From Candidatus Kuenenia stuttgartensis (GTDB lineage Bacteria; Planctomycetota; Brocadiia; Brocadiales; Brocadiaceae): DNA of 32,000 nt. The stretch spans positions 150,001 to 182,000 of the forward strand of contig NZ_LT934425.1 of the NCBI RefSeq assembly GCF_900232105.1, given 5' to 3'. Positions within the stretch are counted from its first letter, which is position 1, and every line of letters starts with the position of its first letter. Made by a program: the position numbers and the translations under genes. Positions 1-28,395 of this stretch are shown here, piece by piece. The notes under the pieces were generated by a model that saw nothing but the letters and a program-made list of their open reading frames with translations, was not told where the DNA came from and searched no databases.

Positions 1-836
1 ATAAAAATATTGAACATAGTGATGGATACATCATTTCAAAAAAGGAGCTTTATAAAAAAATAGAAGAAACTTTAGCATTAGGCGGTAAGCAGATACTCAT
101 GCAAGGGGGACTGCACCCAGCGCTAAAGATAGATTTTTATACTGATTTATTACTCTCCATTAAGAAAAACTTCGATATACACATACACGCCTTTTCTCCT
201 CCGGAGATAATGCATTTTTCCCATCTAAATACCCTACCAATGCCGGAAGTGATACGTATATTAAAAGAAGCGGGGCTTGATTCCATTCCAGGCGGCGGCG
301 CTGAAATATTGACGGATCGTTGCAGAAAAATCATAAGCCCAAATAAATGTTCTGCGCGGGAATGGCTGGACGTGATGCAATCTGCCCATGAACAGGGCAT
401 GAAAACGACTGCTACAATGATGTTTGGCCATATCGAAACTACGGAAGAACGCATCGAACATTTTGAAAAAATCCGGCAGCTCCAGGATAAAACAGGCGGG
501 TTTACCGCCTTTATCGCATGGACATTTCAACCGAAAAACACACAATTGGAAAACGCTCTTTCCGGCAGTCATGATTATTTAAAAACCTTAGCCATTTCCC
601 GGCTGTATCTTGATAACATTGAGAATATCCAGGCATCATGGGTCACACAAGGCGCTAAAATAGCGCAACTCTCTTTAAAATTCGGTGCGAATGACATGGG
701 GAGCACAATGATTGAGGAAAATGTTGTGAAGGCAGCGGGAGTAAGTTATACCATGGAAAAAGAGGAAATTGAATTTTTGATAAACGACGCCGGCTACCAG
801 GCGAAACAGCGCGATTTATATTATACCCTCGTGTAA
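1..836 (+). CDS. Radical SAM menaquinone-biosynthesis enzyme of the futalosine pathway (MqnC/MqnE family), 3' part; 5' end lies upstream of the window
   Basis: Frame +3 is open from base 3 (KNIEHSDGYIISKKELYKKIEETLALGGKQILMQGGLHP...), so the ATG at 99 is internal. Segments QGGLHP, HIHAFSPPEI, GGGAEIL, MMFGHIET..EERIEH and NDMGSTMIEENV match my memory of the CofH/MqnC/MqnE radical SAM branch. I cannot separate MqnC from MqnE by eye. Confidence 0.8.
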   Translation, partial: KNIEHSDGYIISKKELYKKIEETLALGGKQILMQGGLHPALKIDFYTDLLLSIKKNFDIHIHAFSPPEIMHFSHLNTLPMPEVIRILKEAGLDSIPGGGAEILTDRCRKIISPNKCSAREWLDVMQSAHEQGMKTTATMMFGHIETTEERIEHFEKIRQLQDKTGGFTAFIAWTFQPKNTQLENALSGSHDYLKTLAISRLYLDNIENIQASWVTQGAKIAQLSLKFGANDMGSTMIEENVVKAAGVSYTMEKEEIEFLINDAGYQAKQRDLYYTLV

Positions 837-937
837 ATCCATTGTCTTCCGAATAAGAGAGAGAATTATGTGGGATGGGTCAAAGCCTGTGTCCCGAGCA
901 TGCCGAATGGACGAAGCAGACCCATCAGTAACATTTC

Positions 938-1046
938 TATACTGTAAGAGTTCACAAACAGGGATTTCTAAAATTAGATTTAACTTTTGTTGACATAGAT
1001 AGTTATAGCATTTCTGAAATCACATTTTGTGAACCCTTTGAGTATA
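938..1046 (+). mobile_element. MITE-like 109-bp element, copy A
   Basis: Terminal inverted repeats TATACTGTAAGAGTTCACAAA / TTTGTGAACCCTTTGAGTATA (18/21 complementary) and no coding capacity. A second copy lies at 4417-4525 in the same orientation (99/109 identical by hand alignment). If the element proper is 940-1044, it is flanked by TA on both sides, as for IS630/Tc1-mariner-type MITEs (inference). Confidence 0.7.
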
Positions 1047-1047
1047 T

Positions 1048-1998
1048 CTATGCTGAAATATTACAAATATTTTGTATGAAGGAAACCCTTTCTTCCAAAG
1101 TGTTTAGTTCTTTGTAGCGTTGCTCAACGATTTTCAGACGCGGCAATAATCCTGCGCAATTGGCGATTTGGATGTTGAGACCCGGACGCGCATTCAATTC
1201 TAAGAGCATAGGCCCCTTGTCTCTGTCAATAACAATATCTATTCCCTGATAACCTAATCCTGTGAGTTGGTAACACCGTGCGGCCAGGTTCAATAAATTC
1301 TCCCAGTTTGGGATCTTTATGCCGGTTATTTCAATACCTGTATCCGGGTGTTCCGTAATAATATCATTAAACCATACCCCTGTAGTGGTGATACCTGTTG
1401 CTATATCAATACCAACGCCTATTGCACCCTGATGCAAATTTGCTTTGCCATTCGATAAATGTGTTGGCAGGCGCATCATTGACATAACCGGCACTCCGAG
1501 AAAAACAATAATGCGAATATCAGGCATTCCCTGATAGGTAAGGTCTCTGAAAAATGGGGCAAGCTGCACCGTATATTCTACGAACGCCCTATCGGTATGT
1601 CCTCCTATACTATATACGCCGCTAAGAATCTCTAAAATGTGATTTTCAAGGAACTCTTCACTAACGATCGTCCTTCCCAGGGTTCGATATCCTTTCTTAG
1701 AATGGCCGGTGATAACGATTATGCCATTTCCACTGCTCCCATGGGCAGGTTTAATAACGAATGTGGAATGTTTTTTGAGAATGGCATGTATATCCCGTGC
1801 CTGATGGTTTACTGCTACAACGGCATACAATTCGGGGACGTTAATGCCCGCCTGTATTGCAAGTTTCTTGGTAAGTAATTTGTCATCCACAAGCGGGTAT
1901 AGGCACCGCTTATTATACTTTGAGATATAATCGATATTACGGCGATTAATTCCAACAATTCCTAATTTATGCAATTGTTTTATGAGTTTTGGAATCAT
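1048..1998 (-). CDS. RimK-related ATP-grasp ligase ('alpha-L-glutamate ligase-like' family)
   Basis: 316-aa ORF with ATP-grasp hallmarks (FVIKPAHGSSGNGI, LLELNARPG). It resembles the RimK-related family that co-occurs with the two upstream gene types. Its ATG overlaps the stop of the 7TM gene (TAATG at 1996-2000). Confidence 0.8.
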   Translation of the reverse strand: MIPKLIKQLHKLGIVGINRRNIDYISKYNKRCLYPLVDDKLLTKKLAIQAGINVPELYAVVAVNHQARDIHAILKKHSTFVIKPAHGSSGNGIIVITGHSKKGYRTLGRTIVSEEFLENHILEILSGVYSIGGHTDRAFVEYTVQLAPFFRDLTYQGMPDIRIIVFLGVPVMSMMRLPTHLSNGKANLHQGAIGVGIDIATGITTTGVWFNDIITEHPDTGIEITGIKIPNWENLLNLAARCYQLTGLGYQGIDIVIDRDKGPMLLELNARPGLNIQIANCAGLLPRLKIVEQRYKELNTLEERVSFIQNICNISA

Positions 1999-3575
1999 TA
2001 TTTTATCTTATTAAACTCCTTAAAACGGAATAACTCTACTAACCTGTACCCTTTATACCTGCCCAAAAGCATGGCGATTGCCAGTATCTGCAAAAGCATC
2101 TCCGGATATACGAATATTAAGTGTCTGCTATATTTGTTAAACATAAAAAAGTATACAATGGAAGCGGCGATTAAACTTCCCACACATTGTTGCAATGCGG
2201 CTTTAGACCCCCGTTCCTCCCACGTAATGGTCATTCGTTCTATCGTCATAGTGAGAATGACTATTGGGAATATTGAGATGGAGAGTCCTATCTCAATATG
2301 AAGTTTGTAGAATAAAATATCGAATATCCCGATGAATATAATAATGATAATAAGTAAGGATGCGAGACGGGATACCATCAGGAGCCTGAAATTCTCAAGA
2401 TACAAACGCACAGCCATTCCAATCGCAACCAGTATGCTAAATAATATAATACCTGAAATTAAATGTGTTTCCCTGAAAGACAGAGCGATAAGCACAGGCA
2501 TAAAAGTGCCAAATGTCTCAATACCAATAACATTTCGCAGGATAACCAAAAATAAAACGCCAATAGGAATGAGCAGCAACAGATGATAAACTGCCTGAAA
2601 ATGGAGCGGCAAGCTGAATAAAGAAAAATTTAATAAATACGGGTTCATTGTTTCCGCCCTTTTTATAGCGGCATTGATAGCATCCTCTTCCTGAAGACCT
2701 ACAGAAATATTTGTTTTCAGATTTTTCCCGCCGGATAACTGTACTAATGGTTTTGTTCCCCTCCACCAGTCCAGATAGTTCCCGGAAATTAATGATGTTC
2801 CTGAAACCGGATCGTAACCCGTCCACTTCCCGCCACTATACACTTCTATGCACCTTTCTATTTTCGCATCGTTTGTTCTGGTGGTTACTTTAATACCATT
2901 TACTACCCTGGCAGGAATGCCTGCAAGAGCAAGCAATTGAACCGCTAATTCTACCTTTTTATCCACAGAAACTTCTTTGTCCAAAAGAATCGCAACGTTT
3001 TCATCTGGCGGTTGGGCATTCAGAAGCTTGAATAATTTCATCACAAAAGAATCAGTATCTGCTGATTTTCTCAGGATTTCAACAAGAAGGGCGTTGGCTG
3101 CTGACCGATTAGGTTCCAAAAATTCAGGAACTTCCCATTCAAGAGGGGGTGCGCTATCCGGAGGATTTCTTAATTTTACTTTATTCACCTGGATGCGGTA
3201 GAGAAGCACCTGACGCTTACTTGCCTCGTGAATAGCCCATGTTGCGCTCCGGTTAATGTTGTCGGTAGAAGTGGTTATACCATAAGACCTCGAGACAAAA
3301 TTTTCAGATGAAATAATAAAGTTTCTTGAATATCCGGGCAAGAATAACACCACCTTTGCCGGTTCGTTCTGTGCATCAAAGGAAACATGAACTTCAATAT
3401 TCCAAAAATTAGCCTTTTCCTCCGGGACTATAGGAAAACCAAATACAAAATATTTATAGGCGATCAAACCACAGCTTATGAGTAAGAGGCTGAAGATAAA
3501 AAAGTAAAAATGTGTTCTATTCATCGCCGAAAACACTCTCGCATTTTGGTTCTTTGGAATAGGTGGAGGATACAT
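1998..3575 (-). CDS. Membrane protein: N-terminal anchor, inactive transglutaminase-like exported domain, C-terminal ~7-TM bundle
   Basis: 525-aa ORF. One N-terminal helix (FYFFIFSLLLISCGLIAYKYFVFGF) is followed by a ~300-aa soluble domain. That domain has a transglutaminase-core-like scaffold (LALAGIPARVVNG ... EVYSGGKWTGYDPVSG) but no Cys/His at the catalytic positions. Multiple hydrophobic helices run from LHFQAVYHLLLLIPIGVLFLVIL to LLQILAIAMLLG. An alternative start at ATG 3524 (MNRTHFYFF) is possible. Confidence 0.75.
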   Translation of the reverse strand: MYPPPIPKNQNARVFSAMNRTHFYFFIFSLLLISCGLIAYKYFVFGFPIVPEEKANFWNIEVHVSFDAQNEPAKVVLFLPGYSRNFIISSENFVSRSYGITTSTDNINRSATWAIHEASKRQVLLYRIQVNKVKLRNPPDSAPPLEWEVPEFLEPNRSAANALLVEILRKSADTDSFVMKLFKLLNAQPPDENVAILLDKEVSVDKKVELAVQLLALAGIPARVVNGIKVTTRTNDAKIERCIEVYSGGKWTGYDPVSGTSLISGNYLDWWRGTKPLVQLSGGKNLKTNISVGLQEEDAINAAIKRAETMNPYLLNFSLFSLPLHFQAVYHLLLLIPIGVLFLVILRNVIGIETFGTFMPVLIALSFRETHLISGIILFSILVAIGMAVRLYLENFRLLMVSRLASLLIIIIIFIGIFDILFYKLHIEIGLSISIFPIVILTMTIERMTITWEERGSKAALQQCVGSLIAASIVYFFMFNKYSRHLIFVYPEMLLQILAIAMLLGRYKGYRLVELFRFKEFNKIK

Positions 3576-4170
3576 CTATGAAAAAATCGTCCAGCAAAAA
3601 ATTTCTCCCTATAAGCATCTGATACATAAACCGTGTCCTGTTTGAAAGAGTTACTTCAACCTCCTTATAAATACCTCCTATGCAAATGCCAAGTTTAATA
3701 ACGGGGCGTTTTTCTGACGGCATTCCTATACGCTTTACTGTTGCTGTGCGTATGACCCTTTCCTCAATATTCAACTTTTCTCCTTTTTCATTTATCAATT
3801 CAAATTTCACCCATTTTTCACCATCCCGCTCAAATAAGGTATAAACAGGGGCATTTATGGAACAGGTTTTGGCGCCGGTATCTACTTTTGCTTTTAAAAC
3901 AATGTTCCCGGGGAAAACAAGAATCTTCTCTACCCGGCCCAAAATTTCTTTACTTTTTGCATCTGCCAACGAATGGAATGCAAAAACCAAAAATAAACTG
4001 GCTATAATAAATATGCTTTTAGTTTTATACAATAATAAATGGGAAACAAATCTTTGTAGAAATCCGGCAGTAGCTATTTCACAAGCCCGAAAAGGGGGAA
4101 ACATAGATTTTATCATTGAAATAATGCCTCCAGAGCAATTGAATCTAAAAAAGAAATGTGAATTGTCCAT
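3517..4170 (-). CDS. Retropepsin-like aspartic protease of the family annotated 'putative ATP-dependent zinc protease' (RimK-associated)
   Basis: D-T-G-A signature in KVDTGAKTCSI. The hydrophobic signal/anchor is KSIFIIASLFLVFAFHSLADA. The start is uncertain: ATG 4170 (AAGGA 6 nt upstream), ATG 4116 (GGAGG 10 nt upstream), or TTG 4032, which would give a canonical signal peptide (MYKTKSIFII...). The 3' end overlaps the next gene. Confidence 0.75.
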   Translation of the reverse strand: MDNSHFFFRFNCSGGIISMIKSMFPPFRACEIATAGFLQRFVSHLLLYKTKSIFIIASLFLVFAFHSLADAKSKEILGRVEKILVFPGNIVLKAKVDTGAKTCSINAPVYTLFERDGEKWVKFELINEKGEKLNIEERVIRTATVKRIGMPSEKRPVIKLGICIGGIYKEVEVTLSNRTRFMYQMLIGRNFLLDDFFIDVSSTYSKEPKCESVFGDE

Positions 4171-4343
4171 AATAGTTCCTTAAATTACACTAAAAATCAT
4201 TTGCAATACGAATACTGTGCTTCATTGTTTGACCTTTTTTCTGTTTTTCTTCACTGACAGGCATTAAATAATCATTACCGTTAGGTGAAAATGGTAAATA
4301 CAAAGTATCACAGTATTTATAAAACATAAAAATAACATAGGCT

Positions 4344-4373
4344 ATTTTAAAAAGAACGTGCCGTTAATGTCAA
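4344..4373 (-). promoter_or_regulatory. Candidate sigma-70-type promoter for the three-gene cassette
   Basis: On the minus strand: TTGACA (4373-4368), an 18-nt spacer, then TAAAAT (4349-4344). It lies ~175 nt upstream of the first ATG of the protease ORF. Prediction by consensus only; the promoter rules of this organism are unknown to me. Confidence 0.3.
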
Positions 4374-4416
4374 ATGCTTATTTATTACGGTGATGACAGA
4401 AAAGTATCAGGCAATA

Positions 4417-4525
4417 TATACTGTAAGAGTTCACAAATATTGATTTTTGAAATTAGATTTAACTTCTGTTGACATAAATAGTTATAGCATTCCTGAAATC
4501 ACATTTTGTGAACTCCTTGAGTATA
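4417..4525 (+). mobile_element. MITE-like 109-bp element, copy B
   Basis: Same element as 938-1046 with the same TIRs (TATACTGTAAGAGTTCACAAA ... TTTGTGAACTCCTTGAGTATA), in the same orientation, again flanked by TA. Confidence 0.7.
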
Positions 4526-4617
4526 AGTATCACAAATCCGGCCTGACCCTTTAATTTAGAGGCGTTGCAGATAAAGTTGCCGGGATTATAGGGCAGTCAC
4601 GAAAAAAACTTGCTTTG

Positions 4618-4661
4618 TGCCGTAAAAGCCAATAAATATAAGGCTTTTACGGCATTTTTTT
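4618..4661 (+). terminator. Rho-independent terminator-like hairpin with no obvious upstream gene
   Basis: TGCCGTAAAAGCC (4618-4630), an 11-nt loop, GGCTTTTACGGCA (4642-4654, perfect 13-bp stem), followed directly by TTTTTTT (4655-4661). Confidence 0.6.
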
Positions 4662-4934
4662 AAATTGGTGTGAACATCCGTTTGATAGTATGCTTAGTGT
4701 AGGGGCGAAGCATCGATATTTCGGTCTCTATGCCGAGATTATGAACGGGCATTGGGTGAGCATGGATTTATTCAGAGGGGGTTTAACCGGCGCAGGAAAT
4801 TTAAGAAAAGGAAGACTTCTCTATGGGAGGGATTAATAGCTCTCAGCCTCCGTACCGGCCGCAGCGCCCGGCAACCGGTTATCGGGGTACGGCCCAACCG
4901 ATGCCTGCGCGAATATTATAACAAAAGGAAAACC

Positions 4935-5267
4935 ATGTTTCAAATAAAAGTTGACGATTCAGGGGTGGTAAAACTCCTGGGCGAATTAAAGCAGAGAACC
5001 TCAAATCTAAATCCGACCATGCAGGTTATTGGCGAACTTGTAAAAACTTCGGTCAAGAGAAACTTTGAGGTGGGCGGGCGGTATTCCATGGAAGGAAGTT
5101 GGGCGGGAGGATCAAAAACATGGTTGCCACTAAGCGCCGCAACCCTTTTTAGCGGCAGAAAGAGCAAATATATAACGAGGAAAGGCTCATACCGGAAAGG
5201 GGTGGAAGAAAAGCTTAAAAAATTGGAATTTTTCAAAAAAAACAAATTGTTACAAATTTTCAATTAA
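4935..5267 (+). CDS. Phage virion morphogenesis / tail-completion family protein (Mu gpG / P2 gpS-like), probably a 3'-truncated remnant
   Basis: MFQIKVDDSGVVKLLGELKQRTSNLNPTMQVIGELVKTSVKRNFEVGGRYS..WLPLSAATL follows the pattern I remember for this family. An AAGGAAAA RBS precedes ATG 4935. The family's C-terminal half is absent (the ORF ends ..NKLLQIFN*). There are no other phage genes nearby. The upstream 61 codons of the tracked ORF (4752-4934) look non-coding. Confidence 0.55.
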   Translation: MFQIKVDDSGVVKLLGELKQRTSNLNPTMQVIGELVKTSVKRNFEVGGRYSMEGSWAGGSKTWLPLSAATLFSGRKSKYITRKGSYRKGVEEKLKKLEFFKKNKLLQIFN

Positions 5268-5353
5268 AAATAAGGGTGGCATTGACAAACTTTGTTTGTT
5301 CGTGTTGAACCAGACATTATGACGACGGTTTTTTATAATGTAAGAGGGTCAGA

Positions 5354-6273
5354 ATGAAAGCGAAAATATCAGTCATTGATGACGAAGAAAGCATACAGAG
5401 TATACCTTCAGGGAATTTCTCTCAGATGAAGGGTATGACGTTGATACTGTTGAGAATTATAAGGATGCGTTGTCAGCTTTGAAAAAAACAAACTACGATG
5501 TGGTATTTACCGATATTGTCTTAAAGGGGAAAACGGGTATAGAGATTCCTGAAGCTATCAGACGTAAAAATATGAACTGTTAGGTTATTATTATTACCGC
5601 CGCTCCGGAAATTGAAAGCACCACATCAGCGGTGAGGCTTGGCGCCTTCAATTATATTCCTAAGCCTGTAACGCAGGAGCAACTGTTAAATATTACGAAG
5701 AAAGCGTTAGAGAAAAAGATAGCGCTTGATAGAAAAAAACAATTATTTCAATATGAAGGCCGTACTCAGAAGCGTAAATGATGCGATAATTATCATGAAC
5801 AAAGACCTGACCATATTATAAGCAAACGATTTGGCCATTAGAATATGTGATCTGGCCGATAGTGCAAAAGGCAGGAAATTTATCACATATACTGAACATT
5901 GTAGCGGAAAATGCCTTCTATCGATTGCAAAAACTTTGAGAAATAAGCAAACAAAAGAAATGTTCTATGTGCAATGTCAGAAAAGCAGCAATATGAATCA
6001 AATAGTTAATGTTACGACTTCTCCGCTTCTTAACGAAAAAGGCGCTATTATCGGGATAGTACTGGTGGTAAAAGACAAATCCGTATCAGAAGAAACAGCA
6101 AATAATAGCCACATTGAATCAAATAAATTTCATCGTAGTTATCAGCAGATCAGAAAAAATGCAATCGGTTTTTAGCGACTATTAAAAATCTGGCAGATGT
6201 GCAAACACTACCGCGTTAATCACCGGAGAAAGCGGTACCGGCAAAGAATTTGGTCGCTGAAACGATCCATGAG
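5354..6273 (+). pseudogene. Degraded sigma-54-dependent response regulator (NtrC family: REC-PAS-AAA+), frameshifted, with in-frame stops and 3'-truncated
   Basis: Reading across frames gives three recognisable parts. REC: MKAKISVIDDEESIQS | FREFLSDEGYDVDTVENYKDALSALKKTNYDVVFTDIVLKGKTGIEI..NC*VIIITAAPEIESTTSAVRLGAFNYIPKPVTQEQLL. PAS-like: MKAVLRSVNDAIIIMNKDLTIL*ANDLAIRICDL...VTTSPLLNEKGAIIGIVLVVKD. AAA+ start: ISRSEKMQSVFS | IKNLADVQT | TTALITGESGTGKEF | VAETIHE. In-frame stops are TAG 5581-5583 and TAA 5819-5821, with at least 4 frame changes. The sequence ends just after Walker A. Confidence 0.8.
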
Positions 6274-6500
6274 GTTGGTATTTACATACACCTGCAAGGC
6301 GCTACATTAATCCCAAAATAGCCCTTGTATTTTACGGCAAATGGCAGATTCTTTCCATAAGCGTCCTGCGCATCCTGAAATGCATAGTTCATAAATAAAT
6401 AATTGTCGTAACAGTTCACCCCTTCAGGATTGTACCGGTATTTGAAAAGGGACTACCCCCTAATCCTTTCCTAAGAGGGAACTTGCCAAATTCCCATACA

Positions 6501-7004
6501 TCATATATATTTTGTCAATTCTTTCAGCGATTTACGATGAGTAGGGTCAGGCATAATTTCAGGATAACCAAGCGGCGTAAACGCAACAGGTTCAATGCCG
6601 GGCGGAAGATGAAGGACTGATTTTACGACAGATATCTTAAAAGCGGCAACCCAGCAAGTAGCCAGTCCCTCTTCTGTGGCGGCAAGGATGAGATGGTCCA
6701 TCGCTATTGCGGCGTCTATATCCGCATAATTTTTTCCGTCACCTCGTTTCCACGCTACTTCCGGAATACTGCATACGCCAATTATCACAGGGGCGGTGTA
6801 AAACCATTCTTCGCTATACGCTTCTTTCAGTTGTTTTTTCACATTCTCATTCTTAATCACAAAGAAGCATACCGGTTGGCGGTTGGCGGCGCTTGGCGCA
6901 TTTCTTGCCGCCTCCAGTATTCGTTCCAGTTTTTCTTCAGGAACAGACTCTTTCTTGTAAGAACGCACACTCCGTCTTTCTTTCATAATATTGTATATAT
7001 TCAT
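6501..7004 (-). CDS. Nitroreductase family protein
   Basis: 167-aa ORF. RRSVRSYKKESVPEEKLERILEAARNAPSAANRQP is the typical nitroreductase N-terminal signature. Confidence 0.85.
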   Translation of the reverse strand: MNIYNIMKERRSVRSYKKESVPEEKLERILEAARNAPSAANRQPVCFFVIKNENVKKQLKEAYSEEWFYTAPVIIGVCSIPEVAWKRGDGKNYADIDAAIAMDHLILAATEEGLATCWVAAFKISVVKSVLHLPPGIEPVAFTPLGYPEIMPDPTHRKSLKELTKYI

Positions 7005-7015
7005 TTGCTATCCCC

Positions 7016-7702
7016 TTAAAAAGTAACCATTTTCCACTGATTCGCCCTGGCATACAACCAAAGCATAGGACTTGCGTTTACCGCTACCGGGTATCCCACT
7101 ATACGCAAAAATTTTACATCCACATATGCGTTGCCAAAACCATAGGAAGATGAAAGATCCAAACTATATTCTGAAACAAGGCGTTCAATAATCTTCACCT
7201 TCCCACCGCAGTAAGAATGGATGCCGTCAATCTCACCGGTAATCCTGCCTTCATTGTCAACGGCAAGTTTAGTCCCTATCCCAATATCGGCATTGCAAAC
7301 TTTTGTAAAGCATTCTACCATTGGACTCAGCGTACCTGATAGTAAAATGATCAGATATCCTTCATTTTTCAGTCTCTTTATTTCCTGTAACGCATATTCC
7401 GATATATGCGGCAATATTCGCTTATGAAAACATTCGTCTATATTGCCAATAATGTTTTCATAATCATTATTCTTTAGATAGTATTTATTCTTTCTGAAAG
7501 ACAGCCCCTTTAAACTGAAACATTTCCGGAGAAAAGCTGCGGCAAAACGCAACAGACTACTGAAATTTATTACCCTCTTTTCCAGAAGATAATAAAATAA
7601 AACCCTTTCGGAGGAAATACCCTTAATTATTGTTCCGTCGATATCAAAAATAGCTGCTTTTCTCACGCGCAGGATTTTACTTATTGAATATGTTTCTTTC
7701 AA
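7016..7702 (-). CDS. HAD superfamily hydrolase, subfamily IB (phosphoserine-phosphatase-like)
   Basis: AAIFDIDGTII (DxDxT motif I), LLSGTLSPMV (motif II region), GFGNAYVDVKFL (motif IV-like). Confidence 0.75.
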   Translation of the reverse strand: MKETYSISKILRVRKAAIFDIDGTIIKGISSERVLFYYLLEKRVINFSSLLRFAAAFLRKCFSLKGLSFRKNKYYLKNNDYENIIGNIDECFHKRILPHISEYALQEIKRLKNEGYLIILLSGTLSPMVECFTKVCNADIGIGTKLAVDNEGRITGEIDGIHSYCGGKVKIIERLVSEYSLDLSSSYGFGNAYVDVKFLRIVGYPVAVNASPMLWLYARANQWKMVTF

Positions 7703-7726
7703 TAAAAAAAACTATAAGGGTGCTTT

Positions 7727-8143
7727 CTAACGAAGCAACATCAGCCCCCCTAAAATTAACAGCATACCCATAACTTTGGAAAAGGTAACCTCCTCTCCCA
7801 AAAAAATACAACCAAAAAAAAAGGTAAACAACGGGGCGCTGCTGGTAATAGGAACAACTTTTGAAATTTCCCCCGTTTTAATTGCCTTAAAAAATATCAC
7901 CTGTGCTATAAAACCCGCCAAAAGACCTGCAAGCACAAGGCAGCAAATGGACTTGATTCCCATCCTCCCGACGGCTGACAGATTTGAAGTAAACAACACG
8001 ATAATAATAACACCAATGACTACGCCCGAACTTCGCACTATATAAGCCGTCATAGGTTCAACAGAAGAAAGCCCTACCTTTTCTAAAAAAGCAACGGTAC
8101 CCCAGAGAATAGCGGTAATAATTGCAAGATAATATGGCGCCAT
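7727..8143 (-). CDS. Small EamA/DMT-family membrane transporter (single EamA domain)
   Basis: 138-aa ORF, four to five hydrophobic helices, EamA-like pattern (ILWGTVAFLEK ... PLFTFFFGCIFLGEEVTFSKVMGMLLILGGLMLL). Confidence 0.7.
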   Translation of the reverse strand: MAPYYLAIITAILWGTVAFLEKVGLSSVEPMTAYIVRSSGVVIGVIIIVLFTSNLSAVGRMGIKSICCLVLAGLLAGFIAQVIFFKAIKTGEISKVVPITSSAPLFTFFFGCIFLGEEVTFSKVMGMLLILGGLMLLR

Positions 8144-8183
8144 ATTGCCTTACCTCGAATAGTTGTTCTGAATGCTGAATAGT

Positions 8184-8256
8184 GTAGAGGCGAAGCATTT
8201 GCTATAGATTGTCATAAATGCGTTCATACCCAAACGGGCAAATGCTTCGCCCCTAC
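8184..8256. repeat. REP/REPIN-like GTAG-headed long hairpin
   Basis: GTAGAGGCGAAGCATTTGC (8184-8202) pairs with GCAAATGCTTCGCCCCTAC (8238-8256): 19-bp arms, 1 mismatch, 35-nt loop. A diverged partial copy (GTAGGGGCGAAGCAT...TATGAACG) lies at 4698-4750. Confidence 0.7.
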
Positions 8257-8320
8257 GTGCATTGTTTGCAGATTAAAACTTTATATGATTCTTGTGAAAC
8301 GGACAATGAAATTCTCCAGA

Positions 8321-8422
8321 TACAGTCGGCAATAGGCAATCGGCAATCTACAGTCGGCAGTCGGCAAATTGCAGATTGATGACTGGGGATTGGAGACCGG
8401 AGATTGGATATTGGAGACTGGT
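8321..8422 (+). repeat. Short-period tandem-motif tract (GTCGGCA / CAATC units followed by ATTGGAGAC-type units)
   Basis: TACAGTCGGCAATAGGCAATCGGCAATCTACAGTCGGCAGTCGGCAAATTGCAGATTGATGACTGGGGATTGGAGACCGGAGATTGGATATTGGAGACTGG. Its core recurs at 13731-13776 and 28236-28280. Confidence 0.8.
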
Positions 8423-8642
8423 GCCTGAGGGCAGTCGTTATTTCCCGGCAAAATGAAGCTTTTATCCGCACCGCCATGCACTTTTAACCCCGTATGATGC
8501 ATGGTGTTACGTCCTATTACGTTTCAGCCTGATAGCTTTATATGCCTTGATTTGCCGCAATACTTTTGTTACCATTTACCATTTATAAAATTATTTGTAA
8601 AATGATTTTTTTTAAACCGTAAGCAGAGGTTTACCAATAAAG

Positions 8643-9611
8643 GTGCTGGATTTGTGCAAATATATCATCGGCGTGGATTTAGGCGGCACTAATTTAAAAG
8701 CCGGCATTGTTGGGCGGGATGGCAACATTTTGTATCAATTTTCAATAAAAACGAACGCCCATGCGGAATCACAGGTAATTTCCCATCAAATATGTGAACT
8801 TATCGCCGGAATAATAAAAAATGTCCGCATTGAGAAGTCCGATATTCTTGGTATAGGGCTTGGTTCTCCCGGACTTATTGATAAAAAAGGCGAGACTATT
8901 TTGTTTTCACCAAATTTATCCAAATGGCGTGATATCCCCATTAAAAAAATTATATCCGATACATTTGGTTTGCCCTGCATCCTGGAAAATGATGCAAATG
9001 CAGCCGCCTGGGGAGAAAAATGGGTAGGGGCCGGGAAAGACGTCAGTTCATTGGTAATGTTAACGCTGGGTACGGGAATCGGTGGCGGCATTATCCTGGA
9101 TAATAAGTTGTGGCGGGGAATAAATAATACTGCCGGAGAAATAGGCCATATGTCGATACAAACAGACGGCCCTCTGTGTAATTGCGGCAATTATGGATGT
9201 ATTGAGGTGTATGCATCCGCGCCTGGCATGGTAAGACGATTCAGGGAGTTATTGGAAAGCGGCAAGGCTTCATTATTAAAAAAGGATGAGGAAATTACCG
9301 CTAAGAGGATCAATGAAGCTGCCGTACAGGGAGATGGTGCATCGTTGAGTATCATTGAAGAAACAGGACGCTATCTCGGCATTGCTATCGTTAATATCAT
9401 ACACATATTGAATCCCGGGGCTGTTGTATTGTCAGGTGGCCTGATTGGTTCTGGAGAATTGTTAATGCGTCCGGTTAAACGGACAATAGAAGAAAGGGTT
9501 TTAAAGGCATCATATAAGGATACGAAAATACTATTTTCACAACTTGGTACTGATGCGGGAATAATAGGAGCTGCCGGATGTCTACTGAAAGAATTAGAAA
9601 TTTCTGCATAA
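8643..9611 (+). CDS. glk: ROK-family glucokinase
   Basis: IIGVDLGGTNLKAGIV N-terminus, ENDANAAAWGE, and the ROK zinc motif GHMSIQTDGPLCNCGNYGCIEVYAS. The start is either GTG 8643 or TTG 8652 (AGGTG 6 nt upstream). Confidence 0.85.
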   Translation: MLDLCKYIIGVDLGGTNLKAGIVGRDGNILYQFSIKTNAHAESQVISHQICELIAGIIKNVRIEKSDILGIGLGSPGLIDKKGETILFSPNLSKWRDIPIKKIISDTFGLPCILENDANAAAWGEKWVGAGKDVSSLVMLTLGTGIGGGIILDNKLWRGINNTAGEIGHMSIQTDGPLCNCGNYGCIEVYASAPGMVRRFRELLESGKASLLKKDEEITAKRINEAAVQGDGASLSIIEETGRYLGIAIVNIIHILNPGAVVLSGGLIGSGELLMRPVKRTIEERVLKASYKDTKILFSQLGTDAGIIGAAGCLLKELEISA

Positions 9612-11380
9612 TTGCACATATCGATCACGGAAAGTCAACCCTGGCAGACCGCCTTCTGGAAAGGACGCAGGCGATATCTACGAGAGAATTCCGGAATCAG
9701 ATGCTTGATGATATGGATTTGGAACGTGAACGCGGCATTACCATAAAGGCAAGTGCGGTGGCATTGACGCTCAGGCGCGGGGAAACAGAGTATAATTTAA
9801 ACCTCATCGATACCCCGGGCCATGTTGATTTTAGCTATGAAGTATCGAGAAGTCTGGGTTCATGCGAAGGGGCTTTGCTGCTGGTGGACGCCTCGCAGGG
9901 TGTGGAGGCGCAGACAGTCGCCAATACCTACCTTGCAATGGAACATGATCTGGTAATTATCCCTGTGGTAAGTAAAATTGATTTGCCGCAGTCACGCCCT
10001 TATGAGGTATTAGCTGAAATGGAAAAGACCCTGGGCATTAGCTCTGAAGAGGCATTAATGGTGAGCGCAAAGAGCGGAGAAGGCGTTGATCAGATTTTTG
10101 ACGCTATTATTAAATATATCCCACCGCCAAAAGGCGATCCCAGTGGGCCGCTGCGGGCGTTAATTTTCGATTCGGAGTATGATGCGTACAGGGGCGTCAT
10201 TATTTATCTGCGTGTCTTTGACGGATCGTTAAAAGTGGGCGATGAAATATTCATGATAAAAACACGGCGTTCGTTTAAGGTGGAAGAGGTCGGCGTCTTT
10301 AAACCAAAAATGGCACCCAAAAACGGACTGTTTACCGGTGAAGTAGGATATTGCATTGCCAATATTAAGTCCATTCACGATGTTAAAGTAGGCGATACTG
10401 TCACCTTAAACAAGGAAAAAGCGGAAAAACCGTTAACAGGCTACCGGCAGCCAATACCAATGGTCTATTGCGGTATCTATCCTGTGGACAATGCTGATTT
10501 TAAAGTGCTTCGTGAGGCACTGGAACGTTTAAGCCTGAACGATTCTTCCTTCAGCTTTATCCCTGAAACTTCTCAGGCGTTGGGATTCGGTTTCCGGTGC
10601 GGATTTCTCGGGCTTTTACATATGGATATCGTTCAGGAACGTCTGGAACGGGAAAGTCATATCAATATAGTGCAGACGGCGCCTAACGTAACCTATGAAA
10701 TTTTAAAAACAAATAAAGAAGTAATCAGAGTCGATAATCCTGAAAGTGTTCCTCCGGTAAATGAAATAGATGAATTTCGCGAACCAATGGTGCGGTCAAG
10801 TTTTGTCTTGCCTACAGAATATTTAGGCGCTATCATGCAACTTGCTGAAGCAAGAAGGGGCAGATACAAAAGCACTGAATATTTAAGTGAAAAACGTGCG
10901 ATTCTTGTATACGAACTGCCCTTAGCGGAAATCATTTTTGATTTTTTTGATAAAATGAAATCAGCCACAAGAGGCTATGGAACATTGGATTACGACTTAA
11001 TAGGATACGAATCTGCCGATCTTGTAAAATTAGATATCCTGGTTGGCGGGAAAAGAGTAGACGCCCTTTCAACCATAGTACACAAAAAGGATGCAGAGGT
11101 CAGAGGAAGAAAACAGGTGAAGAAGTTAAAAAAAGAGATTTCCAGACACCTGTTTGAAGTGGTACTGCAGGCAGCTATCGGGAGCAGGGTAATTGCCAGG
11201 GAGACCATTAAACCTATTGCTAAAAATGTTACGGCCAAATGTTACGGCGGAGATATTACGAGAAAAAGGAAACTTCTTGAAAAACAGAAAGAAGGGAAAA
11301 AACGTATGAAATCGGTGGGAAACGTGGAAATACCCCAGAAAGCATTCTTGTCCGTACTGTCGATTGATGATGATGAATAA
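9578..11380 (+). CDS. lepA: Elongation factor 4 (LepA)
   Basis: 600 aa with IRNFCIIAHIDHGKSTLADRLLE, DTPGHVDF, the LepA-specific C-terminal domain, and ..AKCYGGDITRKRKLLEKQKEGKKRMK. Overlaps the glk 3' end by 34 nt. Confidence 0.97.
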   Translation: MSTERIRNFCIIAHIDHGKSTLADRLLERTQAISTREFRNQMLDDMDLERERGITIKASAVALTLRRGETEYNLNLIDTPGHVDFSYEVSRSLGSCEGALLLVDASQGVEAQTVANTYLAMEHDLVIIPVVSKIDLPQSRPYEVLAEMEKTLGISSEEALMVSAKSGEGVDQIFDAIIKYIPPPKGDPSGPLRALIFDSEYDAYRGVIIYLRVFDGSLKVGDEIFMIKTRRSFKVEEVGVFKPKMAPKNGLFTGEVGYCIANIKSIHDVKVGDTVTLNKEKAEKPLTGYRQPIPMVYCGIYPVDNADFKVLREALERLSLNDSSFSFIPETSQALGFGFRCGFLGLLHMDIVQERLERESHINIVQTAPNVTYEILKTNKEVIRVDNPESVPPVNEIDEFREPMVRSSFVLPTEYLGAIMQLAEARRGRYKSTEYLSEKRAILVYELPLAEIIFDFFDKMKSATRGYGTLDYDLIGYESADLVKLDILVGGKRVDALSTIVHKKDAEVRGRKQVKKLKKEISRHLFEVVLQAAIGSRVIARETIKPIAKNVTAKCYGGDITRKRKLLEKQKEGKKRMKSVGNVEIPQKAFLSVLSIDDDE

Positions 11381-12899
11381 AAAAGGGTGGTTTGTGTTCA
11401 AAAATAAGGAAAACACTAAAAAGACAGATTTGCCGGATAAAAAGAAAAAGCGTAAACATAAGTTACGCGAAAATATAGAATCAATAGCCATAGCGGTGGC
11501 ATTGGCATTCGCTATCCGTTATTTTGTCGTAGAAGCATTTAAAATTCCAACAGGATCGATGGCGCCTACTCTGTTGGGTGTGCATAAGGACGTCAGTTGC
11601 CCTAACTGTAACTGGAGTTTCTATGCCGACCGCCAAAGCGAGACCGCTACCTGCCCCAATTGCCAATTTGAAATAAATACCTCTCTTTACTGCACTGCAT
11701 GCAATGGCAAGATCCGATACAACTGGCCCCCCTGGCTATGGAGAAAAGGCACATGCCCCGCTTGCCAAACAAAAATAGCATGGAAGGATTTGTCAAACCG
11801 GGTCACGCATGGCGGTAACAGAATACTGGTAAATAAATTCTGGTATACATTTACCAAACCGAAACGCTGGGACGTCATGGTCTTTGTCTATCCGTTCTAT
11901 GATATAAAATGTAAAAACTGTTCGGTTCTGATACCTGATGTAAAATGGCGTGACAGTTTATCCTGTCCGCGGTGTGGTTCTACAAAATTTTCAAAAAAGA
12001 AGAAGAATTATATTAAACGGCTGATTGGATTGCCGGGTGAAAAGCTGCAGATCGTAAATGGTGATATTTATATAAACGACAAAATACAAAGAAAACCTGA
12101 AAAAGCACAGAATGCGTTATGGATGCCTGTTTATAACGGTAATTACACCATACATGAAGAAGTGGTTCCTACCTGGATAATAGACAATGAATTTTGGAAT
12201 GTCACTGAGAAATCACTGTCATTGAATAATCTGAATAAAGATAATTCCGGGACGTCGCTGGTTACTTTTGGGCAACAAATATCCGATCAGAACGGTTACA
12301 ATAACCGTTCCGGAGAAAATGAAGTGGGAGACATCAAAATAAGCCTTAACGTTACTCCGGCAAAAGGGTCGCATCGATTGGAATTTGTTCTTGAAAAAAA
12401 TGAAGAGGTCTTTTCCGCCAGTATTCCCATCGAAGATATCGCAAACAAGTGTACTCTTTCGAGATCAAATAATGTTGTAGTGGAAAAAGATTTTCATTTA
12501 ACCGTCAACCAGACACATAAGATAGAATTTTCCAATGTAGATCATATCGTATCGCTTAAAGTAAATGACGTTAATGTATTTTCATTCGACTATTATAACG
12601 GGAGTATCCCCGCGTTCCGCCCATTTGACTCAAGCAAGGTGCGTTTTGGCGGGACGAACGCAAAGGTGAAGTATGACAATATTCAAATATATCACGACAT
12701 TTATTATACACGCCTTTCGGACGATACCTATGGCACTTCCCAGCCAATTCAATTGAAGGAAAAAGATTATTTTGTATTAGGGGATAACAGCAGAAACAGT
12801 AACGATAGCCGCGTGTGGAAGTTTGTTCCAGAAAAGAATGTTATAGGGAAGGCATTTTTTGTATTCTGGCCATTAGAAAACATCAACTTTATTAAATAG
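11364..12899 (+). CDS. lepB: Signal peptidase I (S26) with three inserted Cys4 zinc-ribbon-like modules and a long box D-E insertion
   Basis: TM anchor IAIAVALAFAIRYFVV; catalytic Ser box IPTGSMAPTL; GNRILVNKFWY; catalytic Lys box YIKRLIGLPGEKLQI; YFVLGDNSRNSNDSRVW. Six CxxC motifs lie between residues 79 and 204. Four consecutive ATGs at 11364-11375 overlap the lepA stop. Confidence 0.9.
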   Translation: MMMMNKKGWFVFKNKENTKKTDLPDKKKKRKHKLRENIESIAIAVALAFAIRYFVVEAFKIPTGSMAPTLLGVHKDVSCPNCNWSFYADRQSETATCPNCQFEINTSLYCTACNGKIRYNWPPWLWRKGTCPACQTKIAWKDLSNRVTHGGNRILVNKFWYTFTKPKRWDVMVFVYPFYDIKCKNCSVLIPDVKWRDSLSCPRCGSTKFSKKKKNYIKRLIGLPGEKLQIVNGDIYINDKIQRKPEKAQNALWMPVYNGNYTIHEEVVPTWIIDNEFWNVTEKSLSLNNLNKDNSGTSLVTFGQQISDQNGYNNRSGENEVGDIKISLNVTPAKGSHRLEFVLEKNEEVFSASIPIEDIANKCTLSRSNNVVVEKDFHLTVNQTHKIEFSNVDHIVSLKVNDVNVFSFDYYNGSIPAFRPFDSSKVRFGGTNAKVKYDNIQIYHDIYYTRLSDDTYGTSQPIQLKEKDYFVLGDNSRNSNDSRVWKFVPEKNVIGKAFFVFWPLENINFIK

Positions 12900-13730: not shown

Positions 13731-13776
13731 AGTAGGCAATTCTACAGTCTACAATCTACAGTCGGCAATCGGTAGT
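13731..13776 (+). repeat. Copy of the GGCAATCTACAGTCGGCAA short-motif tract
   Basis: AGTAGGCAATTCTACAGTCTACAATCTACAGTCGGCAATCGGTAG shares CAATCTACAGTCGGCAA (17 nt) with 8344-8360 and 28242-28258, on the same strand. Confidence 0.7.
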
Positions 13777-13809
13777 TAATGAAGGACTAAGGATGAAAGA
13801 CCACTTAAT

Positions 13810-19597: not shown

Positions 19598-19646
19598 ATG
19601 GATAAATTATACTCCGTTTACATAATGACGAATAAAAATAATAAAA
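19598..19646 (+). pseudogene. Possible N-terminal stub of a small GIY-YIG nuclease-family gene cut by the ISL3 insertion
   Basis: ATG GAT AAA TTA TAC TCC GTT TAC ATA ATG ACG AAT AAA AAT AAT AAA translates to MDKLYSVYIMTNKNNK. This resembles the Y.VYI.TNK.N N-terminus I associate with that family. It abuts the ISL3 left IR at 19647. Only 16 codons, so weak. Confidence 0.25.
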
Positions 19647-19755
19647 GGTCTTCTCCCTACTGAGTGAGTAAAAATGAGCGAAAAAAGTCTTGCGACCCGC
19701 AATTAGAGGGAGTTTTCAGCTTGTTTTAGCGTCTAAAAATGTGATATAAAATCGC

Positions 19756-20216
19756 ATGAGAAAAAAACGATCACTTTATGATGCATATCAGTTTTGTAGT
19801 TTTAAACCACAACACAAGGTATCAGGCGTTTTTGGCGACTCCAATGCCATGGTAATAAAGCTTACCCGACAGGGAAAAAAACCGTCTGCGGTAACTGCGG
19901 TAAAGTATACCGAACCATCTATGACCGCAAGAATAGGCGAGTGCGTGATCTTTCCAGCGGCAACAGGCGTGTATACCTTGAACTTGAGATTCGTCGGGTT
20001 TTCTGTATTTGCTGCAACAAGGCGAAGCAAGAGAAGCTGAAGTTCCTTGCGGATAATCCTTTCTACACCAAGCGCTTTGCCTTCTATGTCGGCAAGAGAT
20101 GCAGTACCCAGGCGATTAAATACGCTGCCGCAGAATTGCACCTGGACTGGAAAACTGTCAAGGAACTCGAAAAGCAGTACATGCGGGAGAAACTCCGCCG
20201 TGCCGGGAATCCAGGT
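19756..20216 (+). pseudogene. ISL3-family transposase, N-terminal fragment (zinc-finger/HTH part), also frameshifted at an A7 run
   Basis: Frame 1 MRKKRSLYDAYQF...VIKLTRQGKK switches at A7 (19875-19881) to frame 3: VCGNCGKVYRTIYDRKNRRVRDLSSGNRRVYLELEIRRVFCICCNKAKQEKLKFLADNPFYTKRFAFYVGKRC...YMREKLRRAGNPG. It is then broken by the insertion at 20217. Confidence 0.85.
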
Positions 20217-20616
20217 GGGTGCATTCACGATTTTTTGCAAAAAAACAATCAGTAGGGGTTAACAGTAACGTAGAGACAGGTTTCAAACCTGTCTTTTACC
20301 AGGAGCATTTCCGATTTTTTGTAACCGTTTGTGTGATTGGGGCAAAACAACGCTGCAAGGGATGTGGCAAGCCTGTCCCCCGCTGGCGGGGGATTAAGGG
20401 GGTGGAATTGTCTGCGGAGGAAATCTGGGCGGTTTATAACATGAATAGCCATAAATTTTTCTTCTCATTCCTACGTTCTGCGGGAATGCATGTCACGAAA
20501 CAGGATAAAATTGTCCATTTGACCAGTCTGCGGAGCGTGGGAAAGAGGGTCAAATTTGTTTTAATAATAAAGGGGTAGTTGAATCGATGGAGAAATCCAG
20601 TCCACCCCCTGCACCC

Positions 20617-22000: not shown

Positions 22001-22040
22001 CCCCTGCACCCCCGCCAGCGGGGGACATAGTTTGAACAAC

Positions 22041-22190
22041 AGGCGCATTCCCGATTTTTGGTTAACTAATTGTACATTGTAACACAAGCATCCTGCTTGT
22101 GGCATTTTACCCTCAAACAGGAAACTTGTGTTACTATTCCTTTCCCTCTCCCCGCTAATGGCATTTTTACAAAAAATCGGGAATGCTCCC
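22041..22190. repeat. ~150-bp MITE-like unit bounded by the same 25-nt end motif
   Basis: AGGCGCATTCCCGATTTTTGGTTA (22041-22064, +) and TTTACAAAAAATCGGGAATGCTCCC (22166-22190, inverted). A further + copy lies at 20302-20324. Confidence 0.55.
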
Positions 22191-22336
22191 CTTTTACCGC
22201 TTGAAAATGACAGAAACAACCCTGACAGGGTTCCAAACCCTGTCAGGGTTAATCAAACAAGATGTTTGCGATACAATACCTGTCAACCAACAGGCATGTG
22301 CGAATATTTACAAAAAATCGGGAATGCACCCTGAAC

Positions 22337-23104
22337 AATCCTGGTCCAAAGGTAATCGGTATTGATGAAATTTCTATTCGTAAAGGTCACCGTTACCGTA
22401 TCATAGTAAGCGACCTTGAGAGGAAGCGGGTGATTTGGTTTGGCGGCAAAGACCGTTCAGAAGATAGCATGAATCTATTCTGTGAAGAACTGGGGCTTCA
22501 AAAAATCAGGGAAATACGGCTTGCAGTTATGGACATGTGGAAGGCTTTTGAAAACTCCATCCGCCATCATGCACCGCAAGCTGCCACACTCTACGATAAG
22601 TCTCATGTCATGAAGCATCTGCACGAGGAATTAGACAAAGTGAGAAAGAGCGAATATGCCAGACTGACTGGCAAAGACCGTAAGTTTATTAAAGGCCAGA
22701 AATACACGCGGCTCTCCCATCGTGAGAATCTCACGACTGACGGGAGAAAAGCATTAAAGATACTTCTGACTGCCAACAGGCGGCTGAACACTGCCTATAT
22801 CATCAAAGAGACATTCGGGCAGTTATGGAGCTATACGTCAGAGGCCTGGGCCAGAAAGTTTTTTGATAACTGGAAGACCTCGATAAAGTGGCAACGGCTT
22901 AAACCATATGAGAAGTTTGCAGAACTGGTCGAACGCCACTGGGATGGCATTGCCGCCTTCTGCAAACCAGAGAATAAGGTTTCGCTCGGATTTGTCGAAG
23001 GTCTGAATAACAAAATCAGGGTAATTCAACGTCGGGCTTATAGCCTACGAGATGAAGAATATCTCCTGCTCAAAATCTTGACCTGCATGCTCCCTGATAT
23101 CTAA
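22337..23104 (+). pseudogene. ISL3-family transposase, C-terminal DDE fragment
   Basis: NPGPKVIGIDEISIRKGHRYRIIVSDLERKRVIWFGGKDRS...AVMDMWKAFENSI...GFVEGLNNKIRVIQRRAYSLRDEEYLLLKILT is typical of the ISL3 DDE domain. It resumes the reading frame broken at 20216. Confidence 0.85.
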
Positions 23105-23468
23105 TTCAATACAAAAATGGCTCATTTTTACCCACTCGATAGGGAGAAGACCCAGTATAATCATTCATTAAAAAATTTAAATTTAGAGAGCTTCGCATCA
23201 TATATTTTTTGTAGTGCGACGATGTTAGTCGCATTGCTTTAAATCAGGCGGAGTTTTAAAAGACGAAAATCCAACGGCATTTATTTTTTCATACAGGAAT
23301 TTCCGCATGGCAGTAATCGTATCAAAGGAGACAGGAGGAAACTCCCGCCACCTCGGGAAATATATTTATACCATACCAACTGATGTTATGTAAGTGGGTA
23401 AACAATTTTGGCAGGTCATTTTCTGCGTATATTTCAAACAGGCGGAGCTATTACTATTTGCGGGTTAA

Positions 23469-28389: not shown

Positions 28390-28395
28390 TCCAGC

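Follow-up and report, generated by a model that had tools for sequence, protein, structure and literature searches.

We analysed a 32,000-nucleotide stretch of the genome of Candidatus Kuenenia stuttgartiensis (contig NZ_LT934425.1, positions 150,001 to 182,000 of the forward strand; hereafter the window) and found that three tightly packed minus-strand genes at 1048-4170 are probably the copy in this species of rloABC, a cell-envelope homeostasis module, working by the polyglutamate mechanism proposed below. The trio is a non-proteobacterial member of an already known system and not a new kind of system. Sequence comparison established the identity and intactness of the three proteins, the conserved order and overlaps of their genes, and their vertical persistence in the Kuenenia lineage; by analogy with the characterised relative, RloC would make polyglutamate, RloB would export or present it, and the module would operate in this manner in Kuenenia. 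From the list of open reading frames (ORFs) and the sequence, the order on the coding strand is rloA, rloB, rloC, and the genes are as follows.

1048..1998, minus strand: rloC, encoding a predicted cytoplasmic ATP-grasp ligase of 316 amino acids (aa).
1998..3524, minus strand: rloB, encoding a predicted inner-membrane protein of 508 aa from the ATG at 3524 (525 aa in the longest ORF, 1998..3575).
3517..4116, minus strand: rloA, encoding a predicted secreted retropepsin of 199 aa from the ATG at 4116 (217 aa in the longest ORF, 3517..4170, from the ATG at 4170; 171 aa from the TTG at 4032).

The reference for this system is the Pseudomonas aeruginosa operon that Lormand et al. (mBio 2025; PMC12239564) named rloABC and studied by genetic, structural and biochemical means. 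RloA is described there as a retropepsin-like osmotic-stress-tolerance peptidase, RloB as an inactive-transglutaminase seven-transmembrane (7TM) protein and RloC as an ATP-grasp protein. The RloA orthologues form retropepsin dimers whose substrate channel is basic and which have a periplasm-specific disulfide; RloA cuts 8E and 10E, not 6E or shorter; K46, R114 and R137 are important for this cleavage of polyglutamate (polyE), and the polyE-coordinating arginines are required in vivo (PMC12239564). Triple deletion of rloA1-3 is lethal in hypo-osmotic medium, in which no growth occurs, and also causes biofilm, antibiotic-sensitivity and cell-shape defects, and deletion of rloB or rloC suppresses the rloA1-3 defects (PMC12239564). 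The same study placed 96% of RloB matches in Proteobacteria, and NCBIfam now carries RloA and RloB models. A preliminary description of this DNA had stated that no substrate or phenotype was established for such a trio; the work on rloABC overturns the part on the phenotype, whereas the part on the substrate stands. The Kuenenia trio shares with rloABC of P. aeruginosa PA14 (PA14_41690/41710/41730) the same three families in the same order and the tight coupling of the genes; RloA has the same catalytic Asp, the same Lys/Arg residues for polyE binding and the same two periplasmic Cys, and RloB likewise lacks the transglutaminase Cys. It differs in that its host is an anammox planctomycete, the transglutaminase 'His' position is an Arg, and RloA has a longer N-terminal leader.

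RloA matched PF05618 (8.8e-30) and, in the Protein Data Bank (PDB), the RloA crystal structures 9G58 and 9G59 as well as 2PMA, which bears out the proposal of a protease with a D-T-G-A retropepsin-like motif behind a signal or anchor helix. Against the NCBIfam RloA3, RloA2, RloA and RimB models it scored 106, 91, 88 and 57 bits, each under the cutoff (106 vs 210 for RloA3; 56.7 vs 200 for RimB, NF052261). In the numbering of the 217-aa version, the active site reads K95-x-D97-T-G-A, with KVDTGA at residues 95-100, and the D, G and A of the DTGA motif were at least 95% conserved in 60 homologues. The same degree of conservation in these homologues was found for K95, R155 and R178, which correspond to K46, R114 and R137 of the P. 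aeruginosa (Pa) protein, and for C163 and C210, which align with the disulfide cysteines of 9G58; the equivalent of Pa R92, a less conserved residue, falls in the flap region and is ambiguous. That the polyE-binding residues appear near-universal in the aligned homologues strengthens the idea that an acidic peptide made by RloC is the true substrate. A hydrophobic segment, KTKSIFIIASLFLVFAFHSLA with its boundary before DA, lies upstream of the protease domain, and with this N-terminal segment and the periplasm-type Cys pair RloA is predicted to be secreted, its start codon being ambiguous.

RloB is composed of PF14400 (inactive transglutaminase, 1.6e-43) and PF14402 (7TM, 2.8e-91), and it aligned over its full length with the NCBIfam RloB model NF052267 at 418 bits, under the cutoff of 900. 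Its AlphaFold2 (AF2) model, with a predicted local distance difference test score (pLDDT) of 79.8, contains an N-terminal transmembrane helix, a beta-rich ectodomain at residues 37-281 and a C-terminal helical bundle, and both the domains and the model fit the topology that had been read from the letters, namely one N-terminal helix, an exported domain and a multi-helix bundle. The model suggests that the ectodomain consists of a periplasmic beta-sandwich plus an inactive transglutaminase domain, and a Foldseek search related the ectodomain to the transglutaminase-like structure 3ISR (E=4e-10). The catalytic Cys column was placed by profile alignment to P. aeruginosa TgpA (6G49), and the His column by the transglutaminase HxWxEV motif in the family consensus. 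All of the 47 RloB homologues have K or R in the Cys column (Lys in Kuenenia), and 35 of the 47 have His in the His column, where Kuenenia has Arg; the triad columns of the Kuenenia protein are thus K190, R224 and D238 (508-aa numbering) in place of Cys-His-Asp. The score against PF01841 (Transglut_core) was 20.4, with a cutoff of 23. Because the Cys column is K/R throughout and the His column is Arg here, the designation as a pseudo-transglutaminase is correct, and the claim of a transglutaminase scaffold devoid of its catalytic Cys and His holds, with K190 and R224 at those columns. RloB has Lys for the catalytic Cys and Arg for the His and keeps only the Asp, and so it cannot work as a thiol enzyme; in this it differs from the TgpA-type periplasmic transglutaminases (6G49) and 3ISR, which have the fold of the RloB ectodomain and a GIPAR-type scaffold motif in common with it. 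Arg and Glu abound among the invariant residues of the 7TM domain (RN..G...FGTFMP, FRE, TMTIERM, PE and GRY.GYR..E..RF), and this pattern suggests an active role in transport or binding, not a passive anchor. When the 7TM domain (window 1998-2702) was modelled alone (AF2, pLDDT 74.7), a search of the PDB gave no significant match, and the best matches were RnfA, RnfE and NqrD (E about 2, TM-score 0.4-0.55); no transporter family can therefore be assigned to it.

RloC passed the curated cutoff of the NCBIfam model TIGR02291, 'alpha-L-glutamate ligase-like protein' (446 bits vs 314), and matched PF14397 at 1.6e-91, whereas its score of 42.7 bits against the RimK family model TIGR00768 fell under the cutoff of 143.4; the RimK Pfam domain matches part of the protein. 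A phmmer search of the PDB gave nothing at E<=1e-3, and the ATP-grasp residues were checked by family conservation in place of a PDB template. All of the columns conserved at 95% or more in an alignment of 77 homologues are kept, among them K83-P84, the G87/G90/G92 loop, E141, D254/D258, E267-x-N269 and R271; the E-x-N is the ATP-grasp metal site, and the Lys-Pro and the Gly-rich loop are also intact. No hydrophobic segment is visible in the sequence. RloC is on these grounds a predicted cytoplasmic ATP-grasp protein of the TIGR02291 family whose ATP and Mg sites appear intact, as had been anticipated when the third gene was described as a cytoplasmic RimK-related ATP-grasp ligase. Taken together, the Kuenenia RloA, RloB and RloC keep all residues conserved across the family (K-x-DTGA, the polyglutamate arginines, the Cys pair, the ATP-grasp Lys, the Gly loop and E-x-N).

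The genes overlap at both junctions. The rloB stop TAA (2000-1998) and the rloC ATG (1998-1996) have one base in common in TAATG, a 1-nt overlap, and the rloA stop overlaps the rloB ATG at 3524 by 8 nt, ATGAATAG at 3524-3517, or by 59 nt if the longer rloB ORF is used. Both overlaps had been reported in the preliminary description and were seen again in the sequence, and its motifs KVDTGAKTCSI, LALAGIPARVVNG and GKWTGYDPVSG were all found in the translations. For rloB, the 508-aa version is favoured by gene callers and by homologues. For rloA, public records hold four versions of 217, 199, 171 and 150 aa; the 199-aa start is favoured because GGAGG stands 10 nt upstream of the ATG at 4116 and a Brocadiaceae homologue begins at the equivalent Met. 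From the TTG at 4032, rloA would have a textbook signal peptide, MYKTKS-IFIIASLFLVFAF-HSLA with the boundary before DA. A candidate promoter of the operon lies upstream.

4344..4373, minus strand: candidate sigma-70-type promoter, TTGACA-18-TAAAAT, 11/12 in the consensus scan.

This candidate is situated between rloA and the second of two miniature inverted-repeat transposable elements (MITEs, listed below), within a block common to the sister Kuenenia species. A search against Rfam gave no RNA element, either in the window or in the long leader. Identical proteins are on record for Candidatus Kuenenia stuttgartiensis (CAJ74522/CAJ74523, KSMBR1_00156, KsCSTR_22480), and five other K. stuttgartiensis assemblies match window 1-11998 at 99.96% identity. 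A sixth assembly, GCA_900232175.1, has rloA broken into three or more ORFs (L002:7827-8479). We rejected the interpretation of this copy as a pseudogene; the split is probably a sequencing or assembly error, because 24 indels separate that assembly from the window over 12 kb. The public names of the trio are 'RimK/LysX family protein' for the protease, 'UUP1 family membrane protein' and 'hypothetical'. 'RimK/LysX family protein' (NCBI) and the Pfam family name 'Zn_protease' are misnomers for a DTGA aspartic protease, and a literature search for 'UUP1 family' gave no matches.

To place this arrangement in the family, a census was made by scanning one genome per species, which yielded 80 loci from Desulfobacterota, Nitrospirota, Gamma-, Beta- and Alphaproteobacteria, Bdellovibrionota, Dadabacteria and K. 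hertensis. The rloB and rloC genes adjoin in 80/80 loci, and rloA is directly upstream on the same strand in about 57 of them, so that the trio is a conserved neighbourhood, as had been suggested. That suggestion had leaned on surveys of ATP-grasp amidoligases, for which Pfam family names and a citing paper give indirect corroboration only. The gap between the rloB stop and the rloC start is -1 nt in 29 loci, -4 in 11 and -8 in 5, and that between rloA and rloB is -8 nt in 18/57 and -4 in 18/57. Because overlaps of -1, -4 and -8 nt dominate both junctions, translational coupling at the trio is a trait of the family and not a product of chance, and the earlier reading of a single operon with coupled expression gains support both from the overlaps in the window and from the same overlaps across the 80 loci. 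As judged from overlaps and gene order, rloA-rloB-rloC would form one predicted transcription unit here, while the invariant core of the system, on the evidence of the census, is rloB-rloC with tight translational coupling. No fourth or substrate gene is conserved within 3 kb of the 80 loci, the most widespread family being present in 17, and an adjacent precursor-peptide gene is therefore unlikely; the large clusters found in the 3-kb flanks were rejected as partners, being lineage synteny or spurious high-GC ORFs. A gene for an MscS-type mechanosensitive channel neighbours rloABC in 8/80 loci (L054:168-1307 and seven others among L010-L089), in keeping with an osmotic role and with the reported hypo-osmotic phenotype.

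We propose the following mechanism. The three genes would be expressed from a promoter some 175-230 nt upstream and translated together as a single coupled unit. RloC, a cytoplasmic RimK-related ligase, would use ATP to synthesise an acidic peptide, most likely poly-alpha-L-glutamate, either free or on a carrier. RloB would couple this product to the periplasmic side, exporting it or holding and presenting it by means of its Arg/Glu-rich 7TM bundle and its dead periplasmic transglutaminase domain. The secreted RloA homodimer, with its basic substrate channel, would cut runs of at least eight glutamates and prevent the build-up of the product; without RloA, the RloBC product would accumulate and the envelope would be compromised at low osmolarity. 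A more specific form of this proposal, which we put forward tentatively as a possibility, is that RloC and RloB are a previously unrecognised synthase-exporter of periplasmic poly-alpha-glutamate, a fixed polyanion or osmolyte functionally like the osmoregulated periplasmic glucans, whose chain length would be set by RloA. It is consistent with the conservation of a polyE-binding protease, with the invariant Arg/Glu-rich residues of the 7TM domain, with the MscS genes that are occasional neighbours and with the published epistasis.

Several points weigh against the assignment to rloABC and its mechanism. Even for Pseudomonas, PMC12239564 assigns neither a product to RloC nor a role to RloB, and a literature search gave no later paper on them. 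A transport role of RloB is a guess, because no solved structure is significantly similar to its 7TM domain. The Kuenenia RloA and RloB score under the trusted cutoffs of NCBIfam models, which are tuned to close Pseudomonas orthologues, and because of these scores they are to be regarded as full-length homologues (roughly 30-45% identity) and not as demonstrated equivalogs. In about 29% of the loci, for example in the Steroidobacter group and in K. hertensis, rloBC has no adjacent rloA. From the ATG at 4116, RloA has an unusually long stretch of about 30 aa ahead of the hydrophobic segment. Finally, the Pfam label of the RloC family, 'Sugar-transfer associated' (PF14397), points to a possible glycan substrate.

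The surroundings of the operon had given the impression of a mobile island, to which the following features contribute.

938..1046, minus strand: MITE copy 1, a 105-nt element (940-1044) with TA duplications at 938-939 and 1045-1046, starting 2 nt after the rloC stop.
4417..4525, minus strand: MITE copy 2, a 105-nt element (4419-4523) with TA duplications at 4417-4418 and 4524-4525, upstream of the operon.
4716..6487, no strand: variable gene-poor spacer of 1.8 kb, outside the system, between the operon and the nitroreductase gene.

The flanking repeats 938-1051 and 4417-4530 are 89-91% identical in the same orientation, and a 21-mer from them occurs twice in the window, with 0 expected. The elements end in terminal inverted repeats (TIRs) of roughly 21 nt with TA target duplication, and each copy folds into a long TIR hairpin (-30.3 kcal/mol, z=-4.6 for copy 1; -30.7 kcal/mol, z=-6.2 for copy 2). 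Further copies with unrelated flanks were found on metagenome contigs (L091:1550-1658 and L092:2023-2131) by an exact-match scan that returned 4 stretches only and that shows dispersal, not copy number; L099:8100-8115 is a further site recorded with the family. In size, TIRs, TA duplication, dispersal and hairpin, the 105-nt element is a TA-duplicating MITE, a type which we take to derive from IS630/Tc1-mariner elements; no autonomous partner element was identified. The two copies in the window flank the operon but did not deliver it. Elsewhere in the window, 54-nt inverted repeats that are 87% complementary and 479 nt apart (23460-24046) may mark a larger MITE-like element, and parts of 23579-23752 and of 28344-28403 are found again at a non-syntenic locus of the sister species (L097). 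In the sister species, 746 nt of unrelated sequence take the place of the spacer. Within the spacer lie a PAS-domain fragment (5831-6175; AtoS-like, E=5e-7, far under the cutoff) and an ORF at 4752-5267 with a marginal match to a tail-completion family of the PHROG database (phrog_26, E=0.0015) and no phage match by tblastn; a phage origin of this ORF was not confirmed. Of the 'phage and pseudogene debris' that had been described beside the trio, the phage part is thus weak, while the pseudogene part is modestly supported by the PAS fragment.

The idea that the trio is a recently acquired mobile cassette, a unit whose limits are set by the two direct MITE copies, which may also have mobilised it, is suggested by the presence of these copies in the same orientation on both sides, by the adjoining gene-poor and strain-variable spacer, by the region downstream of mqnC, which differs in every Brocadiales genome examined, by the patchy occurrence of RloB in Brocadiales, with its closest outside relatives in Desulfobacterota, Nitrospirota and Pseudomonadota (46-50% identity), and by the different context of the trio in a Brocadiaceae metagenome-assembled genome (MAG). 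The comparison with the sister species Kuenenia sp. (GCA_039794105.1) largely refutes the recent, MITE-borne version, and we regard the hypothesis as very improbable. The gene order in the sister, signal peptidase-LepA-ROK-EamA-HAD-nitroreductase-spacer-rloA-rloB-rloC, is that of the window, with nucleotide identities of 96% over the housekeeping genes and 93.6% over 1052-4418. At the site of MITE copy 2, the sister has an uninterrupted GATACT-TA-TATTGCC, a clean TA empty site, and MITE copy 2 is a K. stuttgartiensis-specific insertion, which arrived after the trio, because the sister has the trio with this site empty. On the other side, the homology breaks off exactly at 1052, where MITE copy 1 has its inner edge. 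A transposase fragment and V-ATPase genes come after rloC in the sister, whose mqnC is followed by an 879-aa PAS-GAF-GGDEF-EAL gene (L097:10084-12951). The homology at mqnC ends 30 nt past this gene (window 866-938), and no remnant of the PAS-GGDEF-EAL gene was found in the window. Because the homology stops both at MITE copy 1 and past mqnC with no such remnant, the junction between rloC and mqnC is a rearrangement breakpoint and not the end of an insertion, and, on the strength of the synteny and the empty site, the trio is older than either MITE insertion, and its linkage is to the nitroreductase side. An empty site for the whole cassette downstream of mqnC was sought and not obtained, and because this junction varies in every genome the informative comparison is that on the rloA side. 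The MITE family also occurs at unrelated sites, and no copy was found at the trio locus of the Brocadiaceae MAG (L007), where an intact trio stands with a toxin-antitoxin pair downstream. In addition, the GC content of the trio is 0.39-0.41, equal to the surroundings, the divergence of RloB matches that of MqnC (94 vs 96% identity in the sister species, 75 vs 73% in the Brocadiaceae MAG), and all six other K. stuttgartiensis assemblies are identical at this locus. These observations contradict the preliminary view of a discrete insert between housekeeping genes, bracketed by MITEs and moving horizontally, since the sister has the trio in place without MITE copy 2; nor do they fit a MITE-bounded composite element, whose repeats would travel with the cargo and whose empty site would lack the whole unit. 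From these comparisons, the trio is judged to be long-resident and vertically persistent in the Kuenenia lineage, with the flanking MITEs as later additions. Its deeper history may involve horizontal transfer, and any such origin would be ancient: in a neighbour-joining tree of RloB, which carries no support values, the four Brocadiales sequences formed one clade nested among Desulfobacterota and Nitrospirota, and the matches above 53% identity included no RloB orthologue from Brocadia, Jettenia or Scalindua, genera whose MqnC orthologues the database does contain. K. hertensis (L009/L010, SOET01000019.1) has only rloB-rloC, downstream of rho with no adjacent rloA, and its rloBC would be a divergent paralogue or a separate acquisition, because its RloB shows 53% and its MqnC 84% identity. 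The locus is a cautionary case, in that the MITEs and the ragged neighbourhood resembled a mobile island and the sister genome shows them to be later decoration.

Other functions were also weighed. In one of them, RloC would add an amino acid to a sugar- or lipid-linked envelope precursor in an amidation of cell-surface glycan or peptidoglycan, with RloB as scaffold or flippase and RloA processing a protein partner. The Pfam name 'Sugar-transfer associated ATP-grasp' (PF14397) is in keeping with this, as are the cell-shape defects and the sensitivity to cell-wall antibiotics of the Pseudomonas mutants, for which the authors discuss possible peptidoglycan defects (PMC12239564), the overproduction of membrane vesicles by a Shewanella rloB-like mutant, and the presence of peptidoglycan in Kuenenia (PMC4432595). 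However, at least 95% of the homologues keep the polyE-coordinating arginines of RloA, which Pseudomonas needs in vivo, no glycosyltransferase or envelope-biosynthesis gene is conserved beside the trio in the 80 loci, and the best NCBIfam match of RloC is a glutamate-ligase-like family; we therefore consider this explanation unlikely. A cytoplasmic polyglutamylation and trimming of ribosomal protein S6 of the RimK/RimB type is brought to mind by the homology of the ligase and the protease to RimK and RimB, by the NCBI name 'RimK/LysX family protein' and by the cleavage of RpsF-8E by RloA in vitro (PMC12239564). The RimK/RimB (RimABK) system (PMC11957791, cited in PMC12239564) likewise pairs an ATP-grasp glutamate ligase with a retropepsin-like protease that trims polyglutamate; it is cytoplasmic and has no 7TM partner, and its protease has neither a signal sequence nor the disulfide Cys. 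The trio scores far below the corresponding models (42.7 vs 143 bits for TIGR00768, 56.7 vs 200 for NF052261), its protease has an N-terminal hydrophobic export segment and a Cys pair exclusive to periplasmic orthologues, an obligatory 7TM partner gene stands between the ligase and protease genes, and deletion of rimB showed no genetic interaction with rloA mutants (PMC12239564), which makes S6 modification less probable still than a mobile cassette. The least probable explanation is an anti-phage defence or toxin-antidote module, to which the putative phage debris and the transposons beside the trio had pointed. The toxicity that follows loss of the protease requires rloB and rloC, as would be expected of an antidote (PMC12239564), and the trio of the Brocadiaceae MAG has the toxin-antitoxin pair downstream, but no PADLOC model matched any of the three proteins at E<=0.01, the 'phage' ORF is marginal, and the system is chromosomal, syntenic and tied to osmotic and envelope phenotypes.

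Apart from the operon and its flanks, the window contains a 42-nt inverted-repeat pair (19638-19679 and 23120-23161) around a DDE_Tnp_1 (20710-21813) and an ISL3 (22262-23104) transposase ORF, and 19638-23161 may be a nested or composite insertion sequence. Short intergenic arrays of CAGTCGG/CAATCGG-type heptamers were observed at 8310-8378, 13739-13779 and 28236-28276.

With the assignment to rloABC, three Kuenenia genes that had carried uninformative or wrong names are tied to a named system with a phenotype, and rloABC is extended beyond Proteobacteria to an anammox planctomycete and, in the census, to Nitrospirota, Bdellovibrionota and Dadabacteria. If the trio does include a synthase-exporter of poly-alpha-glutamate, this machinery would be old, being common to Pseudomonas, Desulfobacterota, Nitrospirota and anammox Planctomycetes, and would serve in Kuenenia to adjust the unusual envelope of a planctomycete.

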